This document shows positions 3,688-50,490 of a stretch of DNA of 64,000 bases, one piece after another. The notes below the pieces were generated by a model. The model did not search any database, was not told the DNA's origin, and saw only the letters and a program-made list of their open reading frames with translations. How positions within the stretch are numbered: the stretch's first letter is position 1; each line of letters begins with the position of its first letter. A program made the translations under genes and the position numbers. The stretch is from Desulfurococcaceae archaeon (GTDB lineage: Archaea > Thermoproteota > Thermoprotei_A > Sulfolobales > NBVN01). The stretch is taken from contig JAJHQR010000001.1 of NCBI GenBank assembly GCA_020833255.1, forward strand, positions 7,359-71,358. Reading direction: 5' to 3'.

Positions 3688-6600
3688 ATGATGAAGGTGT
3701 GTGCGGTGAAGGAGAAAATCTTGTTAGTGGTTTTGATTGGTTTAGTCTTCGTCAGCGTCTTCTCAACCCCGTTAGGTTTGGTGAGGGCTGAGAGGAAGCC
3801 TCTTAACGTGATCATAGTTTGGCATTATCATCAACCATGGTATTACGGGAGCAACGATTCTTACTTCATTCTGCCTTGGGTTAGAATGCATTCGGTAGGT
3901 AATTACTATAAGATGGCTTTAATACTGAGTAAGTATCCTGAAGTCAAAGCAACCTTCACGTTCTCCGGCTCACTCCTCCACCAGTTGCTGAGCGCGGTGA
4001 ACGGCGTCATGGACTTAAGGCAGATAATATCTTGGAAGATAGTTAATGGGACAGCAACTACTAAAGAGCTTTTCGAGATGTTGAGGATACCGGGGGGTTT
4101 CTTCGACATTAACTGGGCTAACATACTGGAGCTCTCGCCTAGATTCAAGGAGTTGAGGAGTAAAGCTCAAGCAGCTTTCACGAAATACTCGGGTCTTCCT
4201 GAGGAGGATATGATGGTTAAGGTGGTTAACGAGTTTACTAGGCAGGACTTCATAGATCTAGCGACTCTCTTCAACCTACTCTGGATAGATCCGGAGGTGG
4301 TGGGTAGTGAGTACCCTGAGTTAATGTCTTTGAGGGAGAGAGCCTTAACCCAGACAAGCCCTTCCTACACTGAAAGCGAGCTAGCTTTGGTTCTCAATAA
4401 GCACGTGGAGATAATGAGTAAGATAATACCTAAGTATAGGGAATTGCTTAACTCAGGTCAGGCAGAGCTTATCCCAGTACCCTACTCACACCCTATAGCT
4501 CCGCTCCTAGCCGACCTAGGCTGGTACGACGATCTAAGACTACATGTTAGGAAGTCGTTAGAGCTCTTCAAAACCTACTTCAACTACACCCCCTCAGGCG
4601 TCTGGCCAGCGGAGCAGGCGGTCAACGAGGAAGCGCTGAGAGTGTTTAGTGAGCACGGTATCTCGTGGTGTGTGACTGACAGGAACGTGCTAGAGTTAAG
4701 CGGTGTTGACGTAACGAAACCGGAGAATTACTTGAGGCCTTGGAGAATAGACTTCAACACCTCATCCTTCTACGTGTTCTTCAGAGACCCTGACCTAAGC
4801 AATAGGATAAGCTTCTCGTACTCGGGGATGGAGACTAGCGCGGCTATCGAGGATTTAAGGAATTACCTACTGAGCATAGCTTCCGAGAACACTGATGAGA
4901 GCAACGTCATAGTTGTGGCTTTAGACGGGGAGAACCCGTGGGAGAGTTACAGAAACTTCGGCGACGACTTCTTAAACTCTCTTTACTCAACCCTCACAGA
5001 ACTGCAGGAGCAAGGCTACATAGTCACCTTAACCCCTTCCGAGTACTTGAGTCTGTATAGGGGGAGAAGCCCTCAACTACCGCTAACTACCCAGAAATAC
5101 CTTGACTTAGCAGGGAAAGACATATCTCATATAACGGCTTACGAGTCACTACCTACCAGGGAGCTTCAAGCAAGGATAGCTGAGAGTTCTTGGAGCGGTA
5201 AAGACGCTAGATTAAGTACTTGGATAGGTGATAAGCAGGAAAATATCGCTCTGATGTGGTTGGTTAAGGCTAGGAACGACGTGATATCTAGGTACGGCGT
5301 CTCAAGCCTTAGTGAGTTAGCTGAGGTGAATCCAGCGGCTACGGAAGCTATCTTAAGAGCTCAGGCAAGTGACTGGAATTGGTGGTATGGTGGGGAGTGG
5401 GGTCCTGTAGGAAGGTTCGACATAGTATACAAGTATTACTTGACTGAAGCTTACGAGTCCTCAGGCATTCAGCCACCGCCGTACCTAAACGCTACCTTCC
5501 TCCCCGACGGCGTTCCCGCAGGATTAATCAACGCGCAATCACCGCCGTCCTTAAAGACCAAGCCGGTGAATTACTTAATACCTGAGTCAGAGCTAGACCG
5601 TGTGTTGGAGGTTATCGTAGCTCATGAAGTGCTAGATAAGGTTATCGTAGGGGTTGATAGTGATTATATGTACGTGAATTTCCGGATTAAATCACCTGGT
5701 GATTCACCGTACTCGGTAGTTCTCTACTTGAGTAATCCTAGAAGGAGTTACTCGCCGTGGGTCAGGGGCTACAACGTGTTCCCGATAAACGCTACGAGGG
5801 ATTTAGGCGTAGCCATAGCTAGTGCGGTGGTTATCAAAGTATCTAGAGAAGCTTTAACGGATCCTCTCAGAAGGGTGGTCATCACCTACCAAGCAAGCGG
5901 TAACGAGTCGTACTATCCTTCCTACGTTGACTACTACAACGTGTTGGTTAGCGATAGCGATATCTACGTAGCGCTAGGCGTTAAGTGGGTTAATCTAGGC
6001 TTGGAAGTTGGTGACGTAACTTACTTGGCGGCGGCACTCTACGCTAACAACACCTTAGAAGCTTACTCGAGTAGGTTAGGGAGTGTTTACTTCGTTAGGG
6101 TGCCTAGACCCCCGGTAGCTCCTGGAGCTAACTTAATAGCGGAATTCACGGACCCCGAGAAAGACGATAAAGGTACTGGAACTTACGTCTACCCGTTAAA
6201 TAAAGTGTTCGTGCCCGGAGTCTTCGACCTACTTAAGTTTAGCGTGCTCGACGCCGGCGATAAATACATCCTAACTTTTGAGGTTAGGGAGTTAGGCGGT
6301 AATCCGTGGGGAGGGCCTAACGGCTTCAGCATGCAGTTCTTCCACGTATACTTAGACACCGACAACGTTCCAGGTAGCGGCAACATAACCACCTTCGGGT
6401 TATGGGTTAACGTAGACCCAGAGTATGCTTGGGAAGTAGCGCTACTCATAGGTCCTGGATGGGCCGGAGGCAATAACGTGATATACCCTAACGGCACGAA
6501 CGTAGCTAACGCCATGAGTATCTACGTAGAGCAACCAAACAAGATCGTGGCGGAGGTACCTAAGCAGTTGATACCTGCGATCAAACAGCCTAACGAGTGG

Positions 6601-7107: not shown

Positions 7108-8520
7108 GTGATTTGCTTGGGTAGTGGTATTAGTAAGACTCTCGCCATAGTTATAGGTGTCGTGATTTTAATCGCTGTTGTAGGGATCATAATCTACATG
7201 ACTAGCTTACCACCCGCACCCACAACAACACCAACAACCACACCCACAACCACACCAACCACAACACCAACAACCACACCAACTACAACGCCTACCACGA
7301 CAACACCTATTACGTATAAGTTGAAGTTTGGTGATTTGGAGGTAACGGTTACTAAAGAGATTTACGAGGTGGCTCAGAAGGCTAAGAATGGACAGATAGA
7401 CGTTACGATTACTTTCTGGGTTTCTATGATGCCTTTTGAGGAGGACGTGATTAGGAATATTATCGCGAACTTCACTGCCGAGTATCCCGGTATAAAAGTT
7501 AACTTAGTCCACCAGGATAGTATGAAAGACGTTTACCAAGCTCAAGTAGCTATCGGGAGAGGCCCTGACTTACTTACTTGGGCTCATGACTGGACCGGAG
7601 GGTTTGCTGACGCTAACATGATCGTTCCCTTAGACCAGTACTTAACTACCGATATACTGAATCAATACGTTGACTCCGCGCTTAAGGCGGCGTCTTACAA
7701 TAACAAGATATGGGGCTTGCCTTGGGCAGCTGAGACAGTCGCTCTAGTATGTAATAACGCGTTAGTGAGTAAGATCCCGGAAAGCTTTGATGAGTTAAAG
7801 AGCATAATGCAGCAATACTATAGCCCTACTGCAGACATGTACGGTATTTCCTACCAAGTCGATCCTTACTTCGTTTCCGCATGGGCTCACGCCTTCGGAG
7901 GTTATTACTTTAACGACACCACCAAGAAGCCGGGGGTTAACTTAACTGAGACGGTGACTGGGATAAAGTTCTTCTACGAGAATATTTACGTGTACTTATA
8001 TCAAGGCGATTTAGGGCATGACGCGCAACTAAACTTATTCTTGAACGGTAAAACGCCGTGTATAGTGACCGGTCCTTGGGATATTAAAGCTATTAAGGAT
8101 GCAGGCATAAACTTCACCGTGACGCCGTTGCCTAAAATATCTGAGACCGTGGTGCCGAAGCCTTATTCAGGCGTTAAGCTAATATGGCTTAATCCAAACT
8201 CTCAGAATAAGGAGGCTGCAGTACTCTTCGCTCTATGGTTCACGCTGAATAATAGGGTCATACAGAAACTAGCTGAGACAGCCGGCTTCGTCCCAGTTCT
8301 TAAAGCCGTTCTTGGGTGGGAAGGCTTATCCAGACTTCCTGTAGTATATGGTTACGCTAGGGCTGTGGAAGGAAGTATTCCTATGCCTTCCAGCCCTGAG
8401 ATGAACTACGTGTGGGGTCCCGTCAGCGACGCGTTAACCGCTATAAACCAGGGCGTGCAGACAGTGGAGCAAGCGCTCAATTACGCTCAAGCAGAAATAC
8501 TTAAGAAGCTTCCAGGATAG
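7108..8520 (+). CDS. sugar (maltose/maltodextrin-type, CUT1) ABC substrate-binding protein, membrane-anchored via N-terminal TM and (TTTP)n linker
   Basis: N-terminal TM helix, seven TTTP repeats, then a MalE-like body (WAHDW, GLPWAAETVALVCN). Directly followed by two CUT1 permeases. GTG start. Confidence 0.8.
   Translation: MICLGSGISKTLAIVIGVVILIAVVGIIIYMTSLPPAPTTTPTTTPTTTPTTTPTTTPTTTPTTTTPITYKLKFGDLEVTVTKEIYEVAQKAKNGQIDVTITFWVSMMPFEEDVIRNIIANFTAEYPGIKVNLVHQDSMKDVYQAQVAIGRGPDLLTWAHDWTGGFADANMIVPLDQYLTTDILNQYVDSALKAASYNNKIWGLPWAAETVALVCNNALVSKIPESFDELKSIMQQYYSPTADMYGISYQVDPYFVSAWAHAFGGYYFNDTTKKPGVNLTETVTGIKFFYENIYVYLYQGDLGHDAQLNLFLNGKTPCIVTGPWDIKAIKDAGINFTVTPLPKISETVVPKPYSGVKLIWLNPNSQNKEAAVLFALWFTLNNRVIQKLAETAGFVPVLKAVLGWEGLSRLPVVYGYARAVEGSIPMPSSPEMNYVWGPVSDALTAINQGVQTVEQALNYAQAEILKKLPG
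7210..7310 (+). repeat. (TTTP)n-coding low-complexity repeat
   Basis: ACA/ACC/CCA-rich 12-nt periodicity encoding PTTTPTTTPTTTP... Confidence 0.85.
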
Positions 8521-25687: not shown

Positions 25688-27778
25688 TTATTTACGTCCC
25701 CTAACCATTACTAAGATAATTACTACGGCCACTACCGCGATCAGAACTCCTGCCAGCAACCACCACTCAATGACAGGTCCCGGCAATTGCGTGGGTGAGG
25801 TAGTTGTCGGTGTCGTGGTCGGTGTGGTAGTAGGTGTTGTAGACGTTATCGTAGGAGTGGTTGTGGGCGTTGTAGTTGGTGTGGTTGTGGTCGGTGTGGT
25901 AGTAGGTGTTGTTGTCGGGCTCGTGGTTGTAGGTGTTGTGGTCGTAGGGGTGGTTGTTGGTGTTGTTGTAGGTGTTGTCGTTACTTCCACGTAGTTTATG
26001 GTTACTTCCTGAGTCTCTGTCACGTGTCCGGCTATGTCGGTAGCTACTGCTTTTATTATTACTTGATTAGTTGTTAGTTGAGGTATTTGAGCTATGTAGG
26101 TTCCTTGAGATTCTTGAACAGCTGCTTCACTCCATTCAGGGTCTCCGGGCTTCTTATAGAGTAGCTTGACTGTGTCGAGACCCCAGCCAGGATCTGACGC
26201 GGTTATGTATACGGTCACCACGCTTTTTCCTGAGATAGGTTTTGTGGGGGTGTAGTACGTTATTTGGACTGAGGGCGGTGTCTCGTCCGGGTATGATGAG
26301 TAAATCAAGTATAGCTTCATGTTCTGTTTCAACGGCACGCTGCATTTAGCTAGCCATAAGTCTCCGTATGTTGTGTGCTCACAGCCTACGTTGGTCGTGT
26401 TATATCTTGCGTAGAGCTTGTATGACGGCATGTCAAGCGTCTTATTTAAGAAGAAGTAGAGTGTGAAGTTATCGGTTGTGAGCGGTAATTGTGAAGTAGT
26501 TGATATTAGGTTAGCGTATAGTGTTAAGTTAGCGTCAGCAACCACCTTAAGATTGAAGCCGTCAGCGGGGTATGAAGCGTTCTCGGAGTATGTTCCCCCA
26601 CCGTAGTTAATGGCTCTCACAGTGCCGTTGACGTAAACCTGGTAAAGCCTGTAACCCCTGTACTGAGACGTACCGCCGTCAGCCGTTGTCACGGTCATGA
26701 ACCACGTCCTGTAAGCGTATAAGCGCGTTGAGTCAGCGTGTATATGTCCTGAGAAGACGCCTATGATGTTGGGGTAGCGGTCTATGATCTGAAGGAAGGC
26801 GAGCGCCACACCCAAGTTCTCGCGCCAGCTAGAGTACATAGAACCCAGCAATGACTGGTAACTCGAGGAATTACCTGATAGTATGCCGAAACCTGTGAAG
26901 AGCGGGTGATGCATTAGTATGAGTATCTTCTTCTCGGACGTGTTGTAGACGCTTAACGTAGTGTTAAGCCAGGTCAGCTGTTCCGTGTCTAGAACCCCGC
27001 CATAACCCGTGTCCAGCCCTACTAAAACGAAGTTCCCTACCTCCCTAACCCAGTAGCGAGGACCTACGTACGTGCCGTAAAGCTTGTAGAAACTGCTTAA
27101 ACTACCTACCTGAGACCAATCGTGGTTGCCGGGGACGCAGAAGGTCGGTTTCATGAATTTGTTGGTGATCCTCATGAAGTCTCTGTACGAGTATACGTCG
27201 CTACCCACGTCAGCGATATCGCCGGTAATTAAGACTATGTCCGGCTCGATATAATTTGCTAGAGCCACGTACCTCTCGTACCTGTCGGAAGCCCACCAAT
27301 TATCCATGGATATGCCGATGTGGATATCGCTGAGATGCATTATCTTAAGCGACGCGGGGTATTCGTCAACAACCCACAAACTCCTAGGGCTGACCACCTC
27401 ATATTTAGTGCCGTCAACCAACGCCTCAACCAATACTGTGTAGAGCCCTGACTCCATATCCGGAAGTAACGCCTCAATAGTTGCTGTGCCAGGCCCTGTA
27501 GTAACGGTTAAGCTACCTACCTCGTACTCTTTGCCCACACCGTACAACCTAACACTCAATACCTGGATTTCCTGACCCGAATACTTCATGGATATTTTGA
27601 GTGTTGAACCCTTCGTAAGCACTGCCGGGAGGCAGTACGTGGGGTCATCAATCCTTATAATGTCTGGCGGCGCTCCAGTATCGAAATACGCTCTGCTTAA
27701 GTTCGTAGTAGGTAGTTCAAGCTGTATTAGAACGCTTAAAATCAGGAGACCTACCAGTATTGAAGTGAGTTTCCTCAA
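25688..27778 (-). CDS. secreted, C-terminally anchored calcineurin-like metallophosphoesterase
   Basis: Signal peptide. Motifs MHLSDIHIG, GDIAD, GNHDW, MHHP, GHIHAD. Long (TTTP)n linker, then a TM helix plus RGRK. Confidence 0.8.
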   Translation of the reverse strand: MRKLTSILVGLLILSVLIQLELPTTNLSRAYFDTGAPPDIIRIDDPTYCLPAVLTKGSTLKISMKYSGQEIQVLSVRLYGVGKEYEVGSLTVTTGPGTATIEALLPDMESGLYTVLVEALVDGTKYEVVSPRSLWVVDEYPASLKIMHLSDIHIGISMDNWWASDRYERYVALANYIEPDIVLITGDIADVGSDVYSYRDFMRITNKFMKPTFCVPGNHDWSQVGSLSSFYKLYGTYVGPRYWVREVGNFVLVGLDTGYGGVLDTEQLTWLNTTLSVYNTSEKKILILMHHPLFTGFGILSGNSSSYQSLLGSMYSSWRENLGVALAFLQIIDRYPNIIGVFSGHIHADSTRLYAYRTWFMTVTTADGGTSQYRGYRLYQVYVNGTVRAINYGGGTYSENASYPADGFNLKVVADANLTLYANLISTTSQLPLTTDNFTLYFFLNKTLDMPSYKLYARYNTTNVGCEHTTYGDLWLAKCSVPLKQNMKLYLIYSSYPDETPPSVQITYYTPTKPISGKSVVTVYITASDPGWGLDTVKLLYKKPGDPEWSEAAVQESQGTYIAQIPQLTTNQVIIKAVATDIAGHVTETQEVTINYVEVTTTPTTTPTTTPTTTTPTTTSPTTTPTTTPTTTTPTTTPTTTPTITSTTPTTTPTTTPTTTSPTQLPGPVIEWWLLAGVLIAVVAVVIILVMVRGRK
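25795..25995 (-). repeat. (TTTP)n-coding low-complexity repeat
   Basis: Encodes about 66 aa of TTTPTTTP. The mirror strand gives the spurious poly-Val/Gly ORF 25770-25994. Confidence 0.85.
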
Positions 27779-44876: not shown

Positions 44877-45204
44877 GGGGGCGGTGCCGACTATAGCCCG
44901 TCTTCAGTACTACGGCGGCATTGAGCTTAACGGCCTACCCGCGCCTCACGCGGCTCTCATCGGCGCTGCTTGGCCTTGCTCCCGAGGGGACAGCCGTTTC
45001 AACGCATCCGCTCCCATACTCGGCGGGTTACTGACGCTTCGTTACCGAAGCGTCCTCACCGCGTCATCGACATCCGGGAGCGGCCGTGTCGTTTCTGTGC
45101 TGTTGCCGCGGGTCTCCCCGCACCCCTTACGGGGTCCTCGCGCCGCGAGGAGGACGGTGCTTCCTCAGGGGATTACCCCCGTAGCCGCCAGTCGGCTCCG
45201 CCCC
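44877..45204 (-). ncRNA. rnpB: RNase P RNA (archaeal type A)
   Basis: Minus strand: 14-bp P1 (GGGGCGGAGCCGACU / AGUCGGCACCGCCCC). GAGGAAGCACCGUCC corresponds to CR-I. GUAAGGGGUGCGGGGAG, GGGAGCAAGGCCAAGCAG (E. coli GGAGCAAGGCCAAAUAG), CGGGUAGGCCGUUAAGCUC, and ACUGAAGACGGGCUAUAG (CR-V, ACAGAAxCCGGCUUAU). About 66% GC. Confidence 0.9.
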
Positions 45205-46930: not shown

Positions 46931-47062
46931 GTAGACACCTCAATAACATCTACTACGGCAAGGTTAATAAATTAAAAACATGAAGTAATCCGTAGCGTTG
47001 CATCAGCGGATTGAAGAATAGTTTATTTTGTTAGAAGGAGCTAGTTTTAATTGGGGGTAAGT

Positions 47063-48622
47063 ATGAAGTATTGTAAGGCTCTCTCCAAATTAGGTGTCGC
47101 GGTCATTGCCTTCATAGTCTTGGTAGCGGTCGCCGCTTTACTGCTTACGTTACCTAGTCTGCAAGGACCCGCAACTACGACGCCCACTACTACCCCTACG
47201 ACCACGAGCCCGACAACCACTCCTACAACAACCCCTACGACCACGCCTACCACTACGTCAACCACGACCACAACAACCCCGACGACAACACCTACCACGA
47301 CAACACCTGCTACGGAGGGTATTGTGTTGTATGTGGTTACCAGGCATTCAGGAGATATCCAGGAGGTAGCGAGGAGGGAGTTTCTGAATTCCGAGATTGC
47401 GAGGAGATATAACATTAAGGACGTTGTTTTCGTGTATTTAGAGGCTGGTTGGTGGGTGCCGATTATCCAGCAGAAAAACTACGATGTTGGGTGGGGCGGC
47501 GGCCCCACACTATTTGATACGCTTTATCAAGCAGGGCTCTTAGCGCCCCTAACTTCTCAGGAAGTCTTAGACGCGGTGAGTCAGATACCGGACTACATAG
47601 CTGGTGCTCCGATGAAGAGGTTCGGCCCGGATAACAAGATATATTGGGTTGCGGCCGCGATGTCTTCCTTCGGGTTTACCGTGAACCTAGCTACTCTAGA
47701 GTCTTACGGGTTGCCTCAACCGGCTAAGTGGAGGGATCTAGGTAGTGTAGACTACGCTCGAAAGCTCATCTCCCTAGGTAAGCCGGCGGTAGGTATAGCG
47801 GACCCAACTCAATCAACCAGTAACACGAGGATGTATGAGATAATCCTGCAGGCTTACGGATGGGATGAGGGCTGGAAAGTGCTGACCACTATGGCTGCTA
47901 ACGCCAAAGTCTACCAAGGATCAGGGGATGTGAGGGACGGCGTCATAGTCGGTGATATAGATGTCGGCATCACCATAGATTTCTACGGGTACATAGCTCA
48001 GTCGCAAAACCCTGACTGCAAATACGTGATCCCGGCGGGCGAGACTATAGTCAACGGCGACCCTATAGCGCTCTTAAAGACTTCGCGCAACCCTGAAGCC
48101 GCGCAAGCGTTTATAGCCTGGGTCCTAACCGAGGGTCAGTGGAAGGTCTGGTTCAAGCCCGACATAAACAGACTCCCAGTAAATCCGAGAGCTTTCGAAA
48201 CCCCTGAAGGGAGGGAGAGGCAAGACCTTTACCAAGCCTTCTTAGAGATAAACAGAACTGAGGGCATACCCTTCGACGACAACCTAGCGCTATCCTACGA
48301 GAAAGCAGTCATATACTACTTCAAGGCGGTGCTGGTAGAGCTTAATAGTAATTTAAAGCAGGTCTGGACCACGCTAGTCAGCAAGTATTTGAACGGGCAG
48401 TTAACTCAAGAACAGTTCGGGTATTACGTGGGACTACTAAGCAAGCCGCTAACATACGTTGACCCTAAGACAGGACAGACCGTTACGTTCACTCAAGAAG
48501 ACGCTATAAGAGTGACTAGCATAATAGGGAGTGAGCCTCAGTTAATAGATCTCTACACGCTTGCGTGGAGGCAGGCAGCAACCCAGAGATACAACCAAAT
48601 ACTCAGCGAGCTCGGAGGGTGA
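47063..48622 (+). CDS. ABC substrate-binding protein (iron(III)/small-solute PBP2 class), N-terminal TM anchor plus Thr/Pro linker
   Basis: ATG 47063 (MKYCKALSKLGVAVIAFIVLVAVAALLL), about 48-aa T/P linker, then a periplasmic-binding-protein-like body. No permease or ATPase adjacent. Confidence 0.65.
   Translation: MKYCKALSKLGVAVIAFIVLVAVAALLLTLPSLQGPATTTPTTTPTTTSPTTTPTTTPTTTPTTTSTTTTTTPTTTPTTTTPATEGIVLYVVTRHSGDIQEVARREFLNSEIARRYNIKDVVFVYLEAGWWVPIIQQKNYDVGWGGGPTLFDTLYQAGLLAPLTSQEVLDAVSQIPDYIAGAPMKRFGPDNKIYWVAAAMSSFGFTVNLATLESYGLPQPAKWRDLGSVDYARKLISLGKPAVGIADPTQSTSNTRMYEIILQAYGWDEGWKVLTTMAANAKVYQGSGDVRDGVIVGDIDVGITIDFYGYIAQSQNPDCKYVIPAGETIVNGDPIALLKTSRNPEAAQAFIAWVLTEGQWKVWFKPDINRLPVNPRAFETPEGRERQDLYQAFLEINRTEGIPFDDNLALSYEKAVIYYFKAVLVELNSNLKQVWTTLVSKYLNGQLTQEQFGYYVGLLSKPLTYVDPKTGQTVTFTQEDAIRVTSIIGSEPQLIDLYTLAWRQAATQRYNQILSELGG
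47171..47315 (+). repeat. (TTTP)n-coding low-complexity repeat
   Basis: Encodes ATTTPTTTPTTTSPTTTP... The mirror strand gives the spurious ORF 47047-47415. Confidence 0.85.
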
Positions 48623-48668
48623 GTCGAGAACTACGTGCATAGGACAACCCTTAAGCAAGTTAAAGACG

Positions 48669-48673
48669 TTTTT
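48669..48673 (+). terminator. oligo-T tract downstream of the binding-protein gene
   Basis: T5 within CGTTTTTATT, 47 nt after the stop. Confidence 0.35.
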
Positions 48674-48733
48674 ATTAGGCTAAACTAAAAACCTAGCCGT
48701 TCACGGCGAGGATGACGGGAAAGACTTTTTAAC

Positions 48734-48968
48734 CCACCACTACTGAGCTAGGTCTTGAGATGTTCCCTTTACGGTAGGAAGTTCGTGTATGCGTCATAGC
48801 CCGCAGGGTAGTGAGCTCTGCGGGATGGGGGCGTCTTCGGCGGAGGGAGGGTGGGATGAGCCGCTAGGCGACTAGTGGCGACCGCTCCCGTAGCACGGGG
48901 ACGGCCTCAGAGGAAGCCGTTGAGAAGTAGGTGGTGGAGAACAAACAAATGAACCACCATCTACTGAG
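48734..48968 (+). ncRNA. unclassified structured RNA candidate containing a K-turn/GNRA hairpin
   Basis: Strand-specific K-turn hairpin at 48845-48889. 7-bp hairpin at 48800-48824. A 12-nt segment at 48926-48937 can pair with either of two direct repeats (48734-48747, 48954-48968). GC-rich island in a 359-bp convergent gap. Confidence 0.45.
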
Positions 48969-48981
48969 AAACGGTAGCTCA

Positions 48982-50490
48982 CTAGCTGTGAATCATTTCC
49001 TCAAGTTTAGGTCTCAGATTATCGACTTTGTGCTTCACGTACCTCATGAAGGCTTTTAAGAGTATTCTGGCGGGTAGGTACCTAGCTCCTCTCATGTAGA
49101 ACCTGTTCATTATGTCCTCAGCCCAGTAGAGGGAGTGGTAGAGGGTTTTGAGCATTACGTCTACGTGTTCCCTCCTGACGGCGTTTCTCCTGAACCAATC
49201 CCTATCTTTTAGGGCGCCCATCGGGACGAAGAACATGGGTACTATGAGGCTCCTGTACTGACGTATCCTGTCCAGGAGTTCCGAGGTCTTCACTAGGTCG
49301 TCAGGGGTTTCCTCAGGTATTCCCAGGATTAAAGTCACGGCAGGGACCACCCTGTTCTCGTGAAGTATTTTAAGCGCTTCCTCAACTACCTCAGGCCATT
49401 TCTCGGGCGGGTATGGCGCGGACTTAGCCGGCATGATTTTCTTAGCTAGGTTCGGGCTGCCTGTCTCAAGACCTATCTCAACACCTAGGTAGTCTTGCTT
49501 GTCATGCAGTACCTCGTTCATTATCTTAGACACTAACCTGTAGTTATCCTCAGCGAACTTGACTGCGGCGAAGCTTGTGTGCGCCCAAGCTATGCTCTCA
49601 GGGGTTAATTCCTTAACTAGCTTATGCAGCTTGATTAAGGGTTCTTCCCTAGGCTTAATACCGTCAGCGCCGTAGAGCAGGACGTCCTCGCTGTGAAGTA
49701 TCGTGTTCTTAACTCCGCTACGTACGTTAATCTCTACCTCAGCCCTTATCTTCTCTAAGGGCATGTACCTAAGAGGTCTCAGAGTCACTGAGCAGAATTT
49801 ACAGCCTCTGGGGCAACCGCGCATTATCTCTACTAAGCCGTTCACGCTCGCGCCCTTAATCACAGGTATCTCGCTGACTTGCGGGACCTCGTGAGGTCCT
49901 ACGAAAACGTATTGAGGTAACTCCTCATTATTTAAGGCTTTCTCAACCAACTCACCGATCACTAACTCGGCCTCGCCGTCGACGACTGTGTCAACGCCGA
50001 ACTCACGCATTAGCTCCACCTCCCACAACCATTGCCACGCCGCCGGCCCGCCGACAATTATCTTCACGCCCCTCTCCTTAGCTTTACGTACCGGCTCACT
50101 CCTCATGAACTTTATGAAGGACTTCCTGTTCACCGGCTCCTTACCAGTTATGAACCACCACTCACTGCTCGGGGGTCCGTAAGCGAAGTAGTCATGATGT
50201 CCTATCATGAGGATCTTCATGCTGTTTAAGTGCTTGCTTATGTGGTCGGGGTCTATGATCGCCGCCCTATAACCCAGGTCCTGCAACCTCGCCTCAATCT
50301 TCCTCAACCCGTAAGGGGCTTCAACAGGCCTGCCCAACTCATCGACCCTCATCTTAGGAGCGGCGATCCACATCCACAGAAACTCAGGGATGCCTATGGC
50401 CGGGCCCGTGGTCATGAATCCCAGGAATTCCTTCCCCCTATGATTCGACATCATCGTCCTATCGCTGGTTATGACTATCTCGAAGCTCAC
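48982..50490 (-). CDS. radical SAM protein with N-terminal B12-binding-like domain
   Basis: CxxxCxxC cluster in MRGCPRGCKFCS. N-terminal Rossmann-like region (KILMIGHHDYF...VKIIVGGPAA). Confidence 0.75.
   Translation of the reverse strand: MSFEIVITSDRTMMSNHRGKEFLGFMTTGPAIGIPEFLWMWIAAPKMRVDELGRPVEAPYGLRKIEARLQDLGYRAAIIDPDHISKHLNSMKILMIGHHDYFAYGPPSSEWWFITGKEPVNRKSFIKFMRSEPVRKAKERGVKIIVGGPAAWQWLWEVELMREFGVDTVVDGEAELVIGELVEKALNNEELPQYVFVGPHEVPQVSEIPVIKGASVNGLVEIMRGCPRGCKFCSVTLRPLRYMPLEKIRAEVEINVRSGVKNTILHSEDVLLYGADGIKPREEPLIKLHKLVKELTPESIAWAHTSFAAVKFAEDNYRLVSKIMNEVLHDKQDYLGVEIGLETGSPNLAKKIMPAKSAPYPPEKWPEVVEEALKILHENRVVPAVTLILGIPEETPDDLVKTSELLDRIRQYRSLIVPMFFVPMGALKDRDWFRRNAVRREHVDVMLKTLYHSLYWAEDIMNRFYMRGARYLPARILLKAFMRYVKHKVDNLRPKLEEMIHS

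Follow-up and report, generated by a model that had tools for sequence, protein, structure and literature searches.

A candidate mobile small-RNA gene cassette with a K-turn hairpin in a Desulfurococcaceae genome

What occupies the GC-rich gap between two convergent genes of a Desulfurococcaceae archaeon? The window analysed here, a stretch of 64,000 nucleotides from a Zestosphaera-like archaeon (Desulfurococcales), carries a plus-strand gene for an ABC solute-binding protein (SBP; 47051-48622, stop codon at 48620-22) and a minus-strand radical-SAM gene (48982-50490, stop codon at 48982-84), the product of which is 95-96% identical to Zestosphaera/Desulfurococcaceae MAG proteins. Between the two stop codons lie 359 bp (48623-48981), for which an earlier note, made from the letters of the window, had proposed an orphan RNA with a K-turn hairpin and two mutually exclusive closing helices. 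The gap and its island are as that note described them, with a GC peak of 0.71 over 48800-48899 against ~0.49 for the whole window, and each motif that it named lies where it had been placed. Archaeal K-turn RNAs are almost all housekeeping molecules, namely rRNA, C/D, H/ACA, RNase P and SRP RNAs, and a K-turn RNA outside all of these classes offers a concrete lead on the mobility and diversification of archaeal small-RNA genes. A scan for tRNA and tmRNA genes returned none, and rRNA is missing from the window and from every fetched locus. The Rfam scan of the window places an archaeal RNase P RNA at 44882-45200 on the minus strand; an origin of the inserted sequence from this RNA was considered and rejected.

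For the plus strand of the gap, the folding energy is -139.4 kcal/mol (z -5.1), and none of 100 shuffled sequences folds as well, whereas the minus strand has a z of -2.3. The strand specificity claimed for the signal is borne out by this difference and by eight G.U pairs that are exclusive to the plus strand, the only strand on which the GNRA loop and the GA steps exist. The K-turn/GNRA hairpin at 48849-48887 reads as first described. Specifically, it consists of a 6-bp C-stem (GGGUGG/CCGCUC, 48849-54/48882-87) with a GG/CC extension, the bulge GAU (48855-57), the tandem G.A/A.G pairs of the K-turn (48858-59/48880-81), an NC helix of 8 bp (48860-67/48872-79) and a GCGA loop of the GNRA type (48868-71). 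Written out as GGGUGG-GAU-GA-GCCGCUAG...CUAGUGGC-GA-CCGCUC, the hairpin has the make-up of a simple K-turn on one strand. A scan of both strands of the 64-kb window required a C-stem (4 bp or longer), a bulge of 3 nt, GA, an NC helix (5 bp or longer), a loop, a second GA and the returning strand of the C-stem, and this site was its only hit; Markov simulations give 0.78 expected sites for the loose pattern and 0.01 for an NC helix of at least 8 bp with a C-stem of at least 6 bp. The K-turn hairpin is a real observation, beyond chance.

This hairpin forms the upper part of an 84-nt plus-strand rod (domain 1, 48826-48909), on which the MFE structure, the centroid and RNAalifold agree. From base to tip, the rod comprises a lower stem of ~13 bp and a small internal region rich in purines (48842-48/48888-92), above which come the C-stem of 6 bp, the K-turn and the NC helix with its GCGA loop. 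It is followed by a second plus-strand domain of 60 nt (domain 2, 48916-48975), for which the same three predictions agree as well and which contains a basal helix of 6 bp (48916-21/48970-75), a symmetric GAGA/GAGA internal loop (48922-25/48966-69), a helix of 12 bp (48926-37/48954-65) and an A-rich loop in which AAAUGAA (48947-53) is conserved.

The idea of a conserved RNA that is resident in this gap did not survive comparison with relatives. Five relatives that have both flanking genes, fetched by the radical-SAM protein (L030, L002, L001, L003 and L004), lack the island in the syntenic gap without exception. In L030 and L002, the counterpart of position 48680 of the window is joined directly to that of 48983-48988, with flanks of 88-92% nucleotide identity; the same gap holds 36 unrelated bases in L001 and ~100 in L003 and L004. 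The window reads TAT-TAG at the left junction, continues with GCTAAAC...GCTCAC and returns to TAG-CTG at the right one, as against TAT-TAG-TTG, with one TAG, at the empty sites of L001 and L002. Its absence from the relatives, together with TAG at both junctions, thus identifies the extra segment of ~304 bp (48679-48982, read on the plus strand) as a lineage-specific insertion, the boundaries of which are ambiguous by 3 nt because TAG stands on either side. The left TAG (48676-48678) and the junction TAG on the right (48983-48985) may represent a 3-bp target-site duplication, or may be chance microhomology. C48982, the last base of the insertion, completes the radical-SAM stop codon as its third base, so that this codon is TAG here where the relatives have TAA, and the protein is left intact. 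The element is present once in the 64-kb window: blastn found no further copy in the window and none in 47 related loci, the covariance model R1 detected no copy in the 47 related loci fetched by the radical-SAM gene, and blastn of the insertion against plasmids and phages gave no match.

Related sequence does recur elsewhere. A search pattern for the K-turn hairpin, made degenerate to purine/pyrimidine, retrieved two JGI metagenome contigs, L053 and L054, to which positions 48828-48978 of the window are 81% and 93% identical, respectively, the rest of both contigs being unlike the window. The two contigs in turn have ~285-287 nt in common, ~95% identical outside two indels, and this common stretch takes in an A/T-rich CTTATTAAG box together with ~60 nt upstream of the box. 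They have nothing else in common. Their flanks have a GC content of 42% and 50% and carry unrelated genes, with a kinase and membrane proteins beside one copy and a peptide ABC transporter operon beside the other. The copy in L054 lies between convergent 3' ends, as does that of the window; the copies in L053 and in the more distant L014 do not. The 3' domain is conserved in L053, L054 and L050. Further copies were sought with three pattern scans of viral_contigs and with spurious-ORF queries (a chimeric six-frame peptide, an 83-aa antisense ORF of L053 and a 36-aa ORF of the window), and none of these searches returned one.

Since the 3' 150 nt (48826-48978) recur and the 5' halves are unrelated, the conserved unit is a 150-nt 3' module that sits on different 5' modules; its boundary is sharp at ~48978, with variable flanking DNA beyond. 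The 5' module of the window (48679-48825, plus strand) occurs in this copy only and has no significant similarity to the 5' halves of L053 and L054 in either orientation, except for the 10-mer UGAGCUAGGU (48744-53), which both contigs also have; the moving unit is therefore not cleanly defined. The same comparison led to rejection of the notion that the 5' modules are reverse complements of each other. On its plus strand, the 5' module of the window holds GGAUGA (48711-16), the TATA-like CTTTTTAA (48725-32) as a candidate promoter, the segment CCACCACUACU (48734-44), and a hairpin (48800-24) that is genuine and longer than the 7 bp first given, reaching 10 bp. A T-rich TATA-like element on the plus strand (48669-48679) belongs to the pre-existing flank, where relatives have it too, and may be an alternative promoter or an old bidirectional terminator.

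Public sequencing runs add further evidence. Five Logan assemblies, from independent runs, contain an identical radical-SAM gene followed by the same insertion sequence, and the insertion is therefore not an assembly artefact; one of them has the variant C48958U, which turns a G-C pair into G-U. All five contigs stop inside the element, with their leftmost bases at 48908, 48948, 48832, 48878 and 48914. Logan contigs are built on a k=31 de Bruijn graph. Assuming this k, a contig ends where its terminal 30-mer has two extensions, so that a differing base is to be expected at left-1 or left+30. In five of five contigs, left-1 and/or left+30 is a site that differs between the copies or is the first base past the conserved core, an agreement that random contig ends give in 0.2% of trials (p ~0.002). 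This coincidence of contig ends with copy-differing sites indicates that diverged copies of the core coexist in those samples, whether they share one genome or belong to neighbouring organisms. The SBP gene (with two start codons) was looked up for contig breaks from the left and yielded no record, and the upstream gene led to a 2-kb contig only.

More distant kin may exist in L014, a Thermoprotei MAG of 39% GC, where R1 gives weak matches at 1438-1581 (L014a; 21 bits, E 0.13) and at 4246-4376 (L014b; 13.8 bits, E 3.7); with such E-values, kinship with the element is suggestive but falls short of statistical significance. Both matches are GC-rich intergenic islands ~25-30 nt downstream of a TATA-like box, in a stretch rich in toxin-antitoxin genes. 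L014a contains AUGAGCCCCUAGGCAACUAG (L014 1463-1482), which is identical to the K-turn/NC/GNRA segment of the window at 18 of 20 nt, on a C-stem that differs but is still paired; its bulge is UAU, and its tandem pairs are G.A/A.A where the window has G.A/A.G. L014a also has GAGAGGAAGC and AAUGAACC, arranged in the order seen in the window. L014b has ACCGCUCCCGUAG, GAUGAACC, a long hairpin and GAACGGUAG in common with the element and is without the apical K-turn hairpin. Further R1 matches, at position 7352 of L014 and in L040 and L035, as well as a blast match in L038, fall in coding regions and were set aside as noise.

How the sequence varies between copies bears on what it might do. Across the three close copies and the Logan variant, canonical pairs fill 97.9% of pair cells, and four cells lack a pair; seven pairs show a one-sided change with pairing kept, and there is no double-compensatory change. 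Pairing is lost in two cells of the 12-bp helix, through an A.C in L053 and through loss of the terminal A-U in both L053 and L054. Given the small number of copies (three close and two doubtful distant ones) and the lack of double-compensatory changes, structure conservation rests mainly on sequence conservation. The variable sites are unevenly spread: the rod has two among the three copies (48863 and 48874, within 48832-48905), as against 21 in the other ~80 nt of the core. At both of the rod positions the pair is kept, with G63A giving A-U and A74G giving U-G, and the K-turn motif itself is invariant between the window copy and L053/L054. The 3' domain retains its pairs at U75C (which gives G-C), U60C and C58U, and an 18-nt insertion in the L053 copy is confined to its loop. 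Such uneven variation is more in keeping with a surface recognised by its sequence than with a neutral repeat. An ORF conserved among the copies does not exist, as no frame is open across all of them. A protein-coding reading was rejected: a conserved AUGAAC follows a purine-rich stretch, and the resulting peptides of 14-36 aa run into unrelated flanks and have only Met-Asn in common.

The proposal of mutually exclusive closing helices stands in part. The 12-mer at 48926-37 can indeed pair either with 48734-44 (11 bp and one bulged G) or with 48954-65 (12 bp), and the local 3' hairpin formed by the second pairing is found in all copies; the upstream partner CCACCACUACU is found in the window copy only. 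That partner sits between the TATA-like box at 48725-32 and the start predicted from this box, and, because it is upstream of the predicted start, it may go untranscribed. In L053 and L054, the purine strand has a further copy upstream, GUAGGUAGUGG, that is able to pair with the 3' arm and is seen to do so in the MFE structure of L053; as this copy could compete for the 3' arm, some form of alternative pairing may occur. As a conserved feature, a switch between alternative helices is not supported by the comparison of copies. Both of the unrelated 5' modules hold a segment related to one arm of the 3' hairpin.

Absent from the gap in the closest relatives and recurring at unrelated sites in other archaea of hot springs, the element looks like a small mobile RNA-gene cassette. 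The explanation that we favour, with somewhat better than even confidence, is that an sRNA gene is carried on a mobile cassette and that L7Ae binds its RNA. The cassette, ~290-305 bp long, ORF-less and probably furnished with its own promoter, would have entered the gap between the two convergent genes in this lineage and spread among different Thermoproteota genomes. Its cargo would be a structured RNA of the plus strand, in which the 84-nt rod is followed by the 60-nt hairpin with the GAGA/GAGA loop, and transcription would start from an A/T-rich box within the cassette or just upstream of it. L7Ae on the K-turn, and possibly on other tandem G.A motifs too, would then nucleate a stable RNP, with the near-invariant rod sequence as the putative protein-recognition surface. 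As to a downstream role, our best guess, by analogy with the architecture of the sR666 RNA of S. islandicus, is a pocket-less H/ACA-like or L7Ae-Cbf5-associated scaffold RNA, and not a modification guide. A bolder version, which we offer as a long shot, sees in the cassette a novel type of mobile element in archaea, with a K-turn RNP gene as its sole cargo and an RNA that would recruit host L7Ae and perhaps Cbf5/Nop10 or a Nop-domain protein. Such an RNP might act as the specificity or guide part for a trans-encoded recombinase, or as a selfish sponge or regulator of host K-turn RNPs, and the element might spread horizontally between Thermoproteota of different GC.

The main rival to the RNA-gene cassette, which we regard as unlikely, is an ordinary MITE-like non-autonomous transposon that is moved in trans, with hairpins that act at the DNA level or arose by chance and a K-turn without RNA function. 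Much of what speaks for mobility would be explained in this way: the insertion relative to the relatives with TAG on both sides, its presence in the window and absence from intact empty sites (L030, L002 and L001), the unrelated insertion contexts of copies that are, two indels aside, ~95% identical in genomes that differ in GC, the breaks of assemblies within the element and the lack of an ORF. L053 and L054 also have short inverted termini, GCYGTTTC...GAAACRGC, but these are only ~8 nt long and imperfect (7/8 match), and the left end of the window copy differs. More generally, a transposon of this type would be expected to conserve its termini, whereas the window copy has a left half that bears no relation to L053/L054 and an internal rod that is near-invariant. 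The helix variation, in addition, is mostly pair-preserving on the plus strand, and the strong strand asymmetry in G.U pairs, GNRA loop and GA steps argues against hairpins that matter only as DNA.

An RNA-based alternative starts from the H/ACA class. The rejection of a canonical H/ACA RNA in the earlier note was sound, as there is no open pocket and no ACA 14-16 nt 3' of the pocket top. An atypical member would carry L7Ae, Nop10 and Cbf5 on the K-turn and the 6-bp helix 2, and either its internal loop (48842-48/48888-92) would open as a pocket or the RNA would be a Cbf5-bound non-guide like sR666. Helix 48849-54/48882-87 places exactly 6 bp between the K-turn and the internal loop, in keeping with the 5- or 6-bp helix 2 that lies between K-turn and pocket in archaeal H/ACA motifs (PMC2651775). 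An ANA triplet follows the rod immediately (48909-48911, plus strand) in every copy, as AGA in the window, L054 and L014a and as ACA in L053. Crenarchaeal H/ACA RNAs, furthermore, are often atypical, with sR666 as a precedent (PMC11077068). The Rfam scans gave no match to any crenarchaeal H/ACA family. We nonetheless hold this reading to be improbable. The internal loop, of ~7 and 5 nt, is largely self-paired, with 3-5 of its positions paired in the MFE, centroid and alifold structures, and does not provide a pocket; ACG (48901-03) occupies +14 to +16, where it is buried in the helix, and the ANA lies ~21-22 nt from the loop (~+22) in place of the usual 14-16. The lower stem, moreover, has ~13 bp as against ~9, and the helix beneath the K-turn of L014a has ~10 bp.

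A guide or scaffold akin to an omega-RNA or bridge RNA, serving a nuclease or recombinase that is encoded elsewhere and also moves the cassette, would suit the conserved structured scaffold with its sharp 3' boundary (~48978) against variable DNA, the variable 5' module and the evidence for mobility. The genes beside the three copies, however, encode SBP, radical SAM, ABC ATPase, kinase and membrane proteins, and no TnpB, IscB, IS110 or other transposase gene adjoins any of them. Rfam gives no HEARO or other omega-RNA match, and we know of no K-turn reported in omega-RNA or bridge-RNA scaffolds, all of which makes this reading very unlikely. We give just as little credence to a cis-acting 3'-end element (a terminator, insulator or mRNA stabiliser) for convergent genes, comparable to bacterial REP or Correia elements. 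The location between convergent 3' ends in the window and L054, abutting the radical-SAM stop, and the very stable hairpins would agree with it, but the relatives function without the insertion, the L053 and L014 copies are arranged otherwise, and the sequence-level invariance of the rod, the K-turn and the GNRA loop exceed what a terminator needs.

The first proposal of an orphan element is supported by Rfam, which gave only noise on the window gap both at the gathering threshold and at E<=10 (the best Rfam 15 scores, 14.2 and 12.8 bits, have E-values above 1). L053, L054 and L014a likewise match no Rfam family, SRP, RNase P, HEARO, Pyrobac-1 and HgcC included. A C/D RNA is rejected on boxes and spacing, again in line with the first reading. 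GGAUGA at 48711 is a C box with one mismatch, and the distance from C to D' is 28 nt, against a guide spacing of ~12 nt; the 'CUGA' at 48964 is, on correction, a U or C followed by GAGA, that is, half of the symmetric GAGA/GAGA loop, and it reads CCGA in L053/L054. The best C/D match in Rfam, to sR43, lies upstream and scores 12.8 bits, where the gathering threshold is 45. The element belongs neither to the C/D RNAs nor to the canonical H/ACA RNAs. A degenerate RNA that combines an H/ACA-like hairpin with a C/D-box sRNA, the latter in the 3' domain with box-like GAGA, AGAA, AAUGAA and YGAGA and two 12-nt 'guides', is scarcely credible: the domain does have 60 nt, a 6-bp terminal stem and 12-nt arms, Sulfolobales do have H/ACA motifs with a C/D motif directly after them (PMC2651775) and there is the weak sR43 match, but the boxes are unlike RUGAUGA/CUGA, with CCGA for CUGA in L053/L054, the GAGA/GAGA loop is symmetric and has no 3-nt bulge, the two 'guides' pair with each other and the sR43 score is far below threshold.

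The reading of the element as a mobile cassette for an L7Ae-bound RNA can finally be set against known systems. The hairpin resembles the K-turns bound by L7Ae/15.5K (Kt-7, box C/D and the U4 5' stem-loop) in its C-stem, its 3-nt bulge ending in U, its sheared G.A/A.G pairs and its NC helix, and it has the same orientation and the same G-C pair at -1b/-1n as simple K-turns. In the K-turns of U4 and C/D RNAs, stem II has 2 bp, whereas the NC helix here has 8 bp, is of regular Watson-Crick/G.U type and is capped by a GNRA loop; secondary binding of the Nop5/Prp31 type is therefore not expected. With archaeal H/ACA sRNAs, the candidate RNA has in common the K-turn in the upper stem, the 6-bp helix that leads to an internal loop and the single hairpin followed by ANA, and it departs from them in its closed pocket, its distant ANA and its long lower stem.

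To our knowledge, the only small-RNA genes known on archaeal mobile units are those of the MITE-like C/D elements of Pyrobaculum. In Pyrobaculum calidifontis, MITE-like elements carry C/D-box (K-turn) sRNAs (Lui et al. 2018, PMC6009581), and the element described here is likewise a small, ORF-less repeat or mobile unit of a crenarchaeon with a K-turn small RNA as its putative cargo, lineage-specific and located in DNA that does not align with relatives. The P. calidifontis elements have clear, conserved terminal inverted repeats around the C and D boxes and at least 15 copies in a single genome. The cassette here, in contrast, would carry a non-C/D RNA and has a conserved internal rod and 3' hairpin with poorly conserved termini.

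The element is relevant, too, to guide-less K-turn hairpins with affinity for L7Ae and Cbf5, a class as yet unexplained, and the covariance model R1, built in this analysis, provides a direct handle for finding its kin in surveys of hot-spring genomes. Among such hairpins, sR666 of S. islandicus is a K-turn hairpin RNA without guide regions that binds L7Ae and Cbf5-Nop10 (PMC11077068). The candidate RNA, likened to it by description and not by sequence, is also a crenarchaeal K-turn hairpin RNA without a single-stranded guide region. Unlike sR666, it has an extra 3' domain of 60 nt and lies on an insertion, and the binding of proteins, which is established for sR666, is a prediction here.

The hexamer AUGAAC, located within 48936-48968 of the window, is conserved between the window element, a candidate K-turn RNA island, and its equivalents in the JGI metagenome contigs L053 and L054, which carry non-syntenic copies, and in L014a and L014b, the two weak covariance-model matches in the Thermoprotei locus L014. 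A purine-rich, SD-like stretch (GGAG/GAGG) lies 7-11 nt 5' of the conserved AUGAAC, and in the window copy this stretch is sequestered within the 12-bp helix of the 3' domain. A translated product was rejected, as the ORFs initiated at AUGAAC in the window, L053, L054 and L014a/b extend into unrelated flanks, with no conservation beyond Met-Asn.

In L014, two GC-rich structured RNA candidates (1430-1600 and 4243-4385, both on the + strand and each preceded by a TATA-like box) lie about 2.8 kb apart within a toxin-antitoxin-rich island of PaREP1, PIN/VapC-like and RHH ORFs. Each has several boxes in common with the window element; neither candidate is in Rfam. A further GC-rich island (GGUGGGGGUGUGAGGGUCGCCGCG...) occupies L014 3290-3390 in ORF-poor, AT-rich surroundings, and Rfam at the gathering threshold gives no identification for it.

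Among known RNAs, an archaeal RNase P RNA (Rfam RF00373, 203 bits; 44882-45200, - strand) is encoded in the window. It lies 3.5 kb upstream of the K-turn element and has no sequence relationship to it. ARAGORN found no tRNA genes in the 64-kb window. The same program missed a tRNA that Rfam detects in L014 (5877-6049, + strand; 51 bits) and that contains a roughly 100-nt intron, and intron-bearing archaeal tRNAs may therefore escape the scan.

The right end of the insertion carrying the element falls inside the radical-SAM stop codon (window 48982-48984), which is retained as TAG in the window versus TAA in relatives with the same flanking genes. The terminator-like AAAGACGTTTT (48662-48672) belongs to the pre-existing flank, is shared by the relatives and is repeated within the insertion as AAAGACTTTTT (48720-48730). 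This repeat could act as a box for promotion or termination of transcription, or could have been left behind when the insertion occurred. Elsewhere in the window, ACC/ACG repeats with a 12-nt period (7189-7338, 25791-25985 and 47168-47326) code for Thr/Pro-rich linkers close to the N-termini of secreted solute-binding-type proteins; a 122-aa ORF at 47047-47415 (- strand) is spurious, arising from one such repeat read on the antisense strand.

Within the element itself, a linker, CUCAGAGGAAGCC (window 48905-48919), has a counterpart in L014a, CCCGAGAGGAAGC (L014 1509-1523). The linker has the same sense as the rRNA that it resembles and is therefore not a guide. Both versions resemble the 23S sarcin-ricin loop read in the sense direction (CGAGAGGAAC), a likeness that is probably coincidental.
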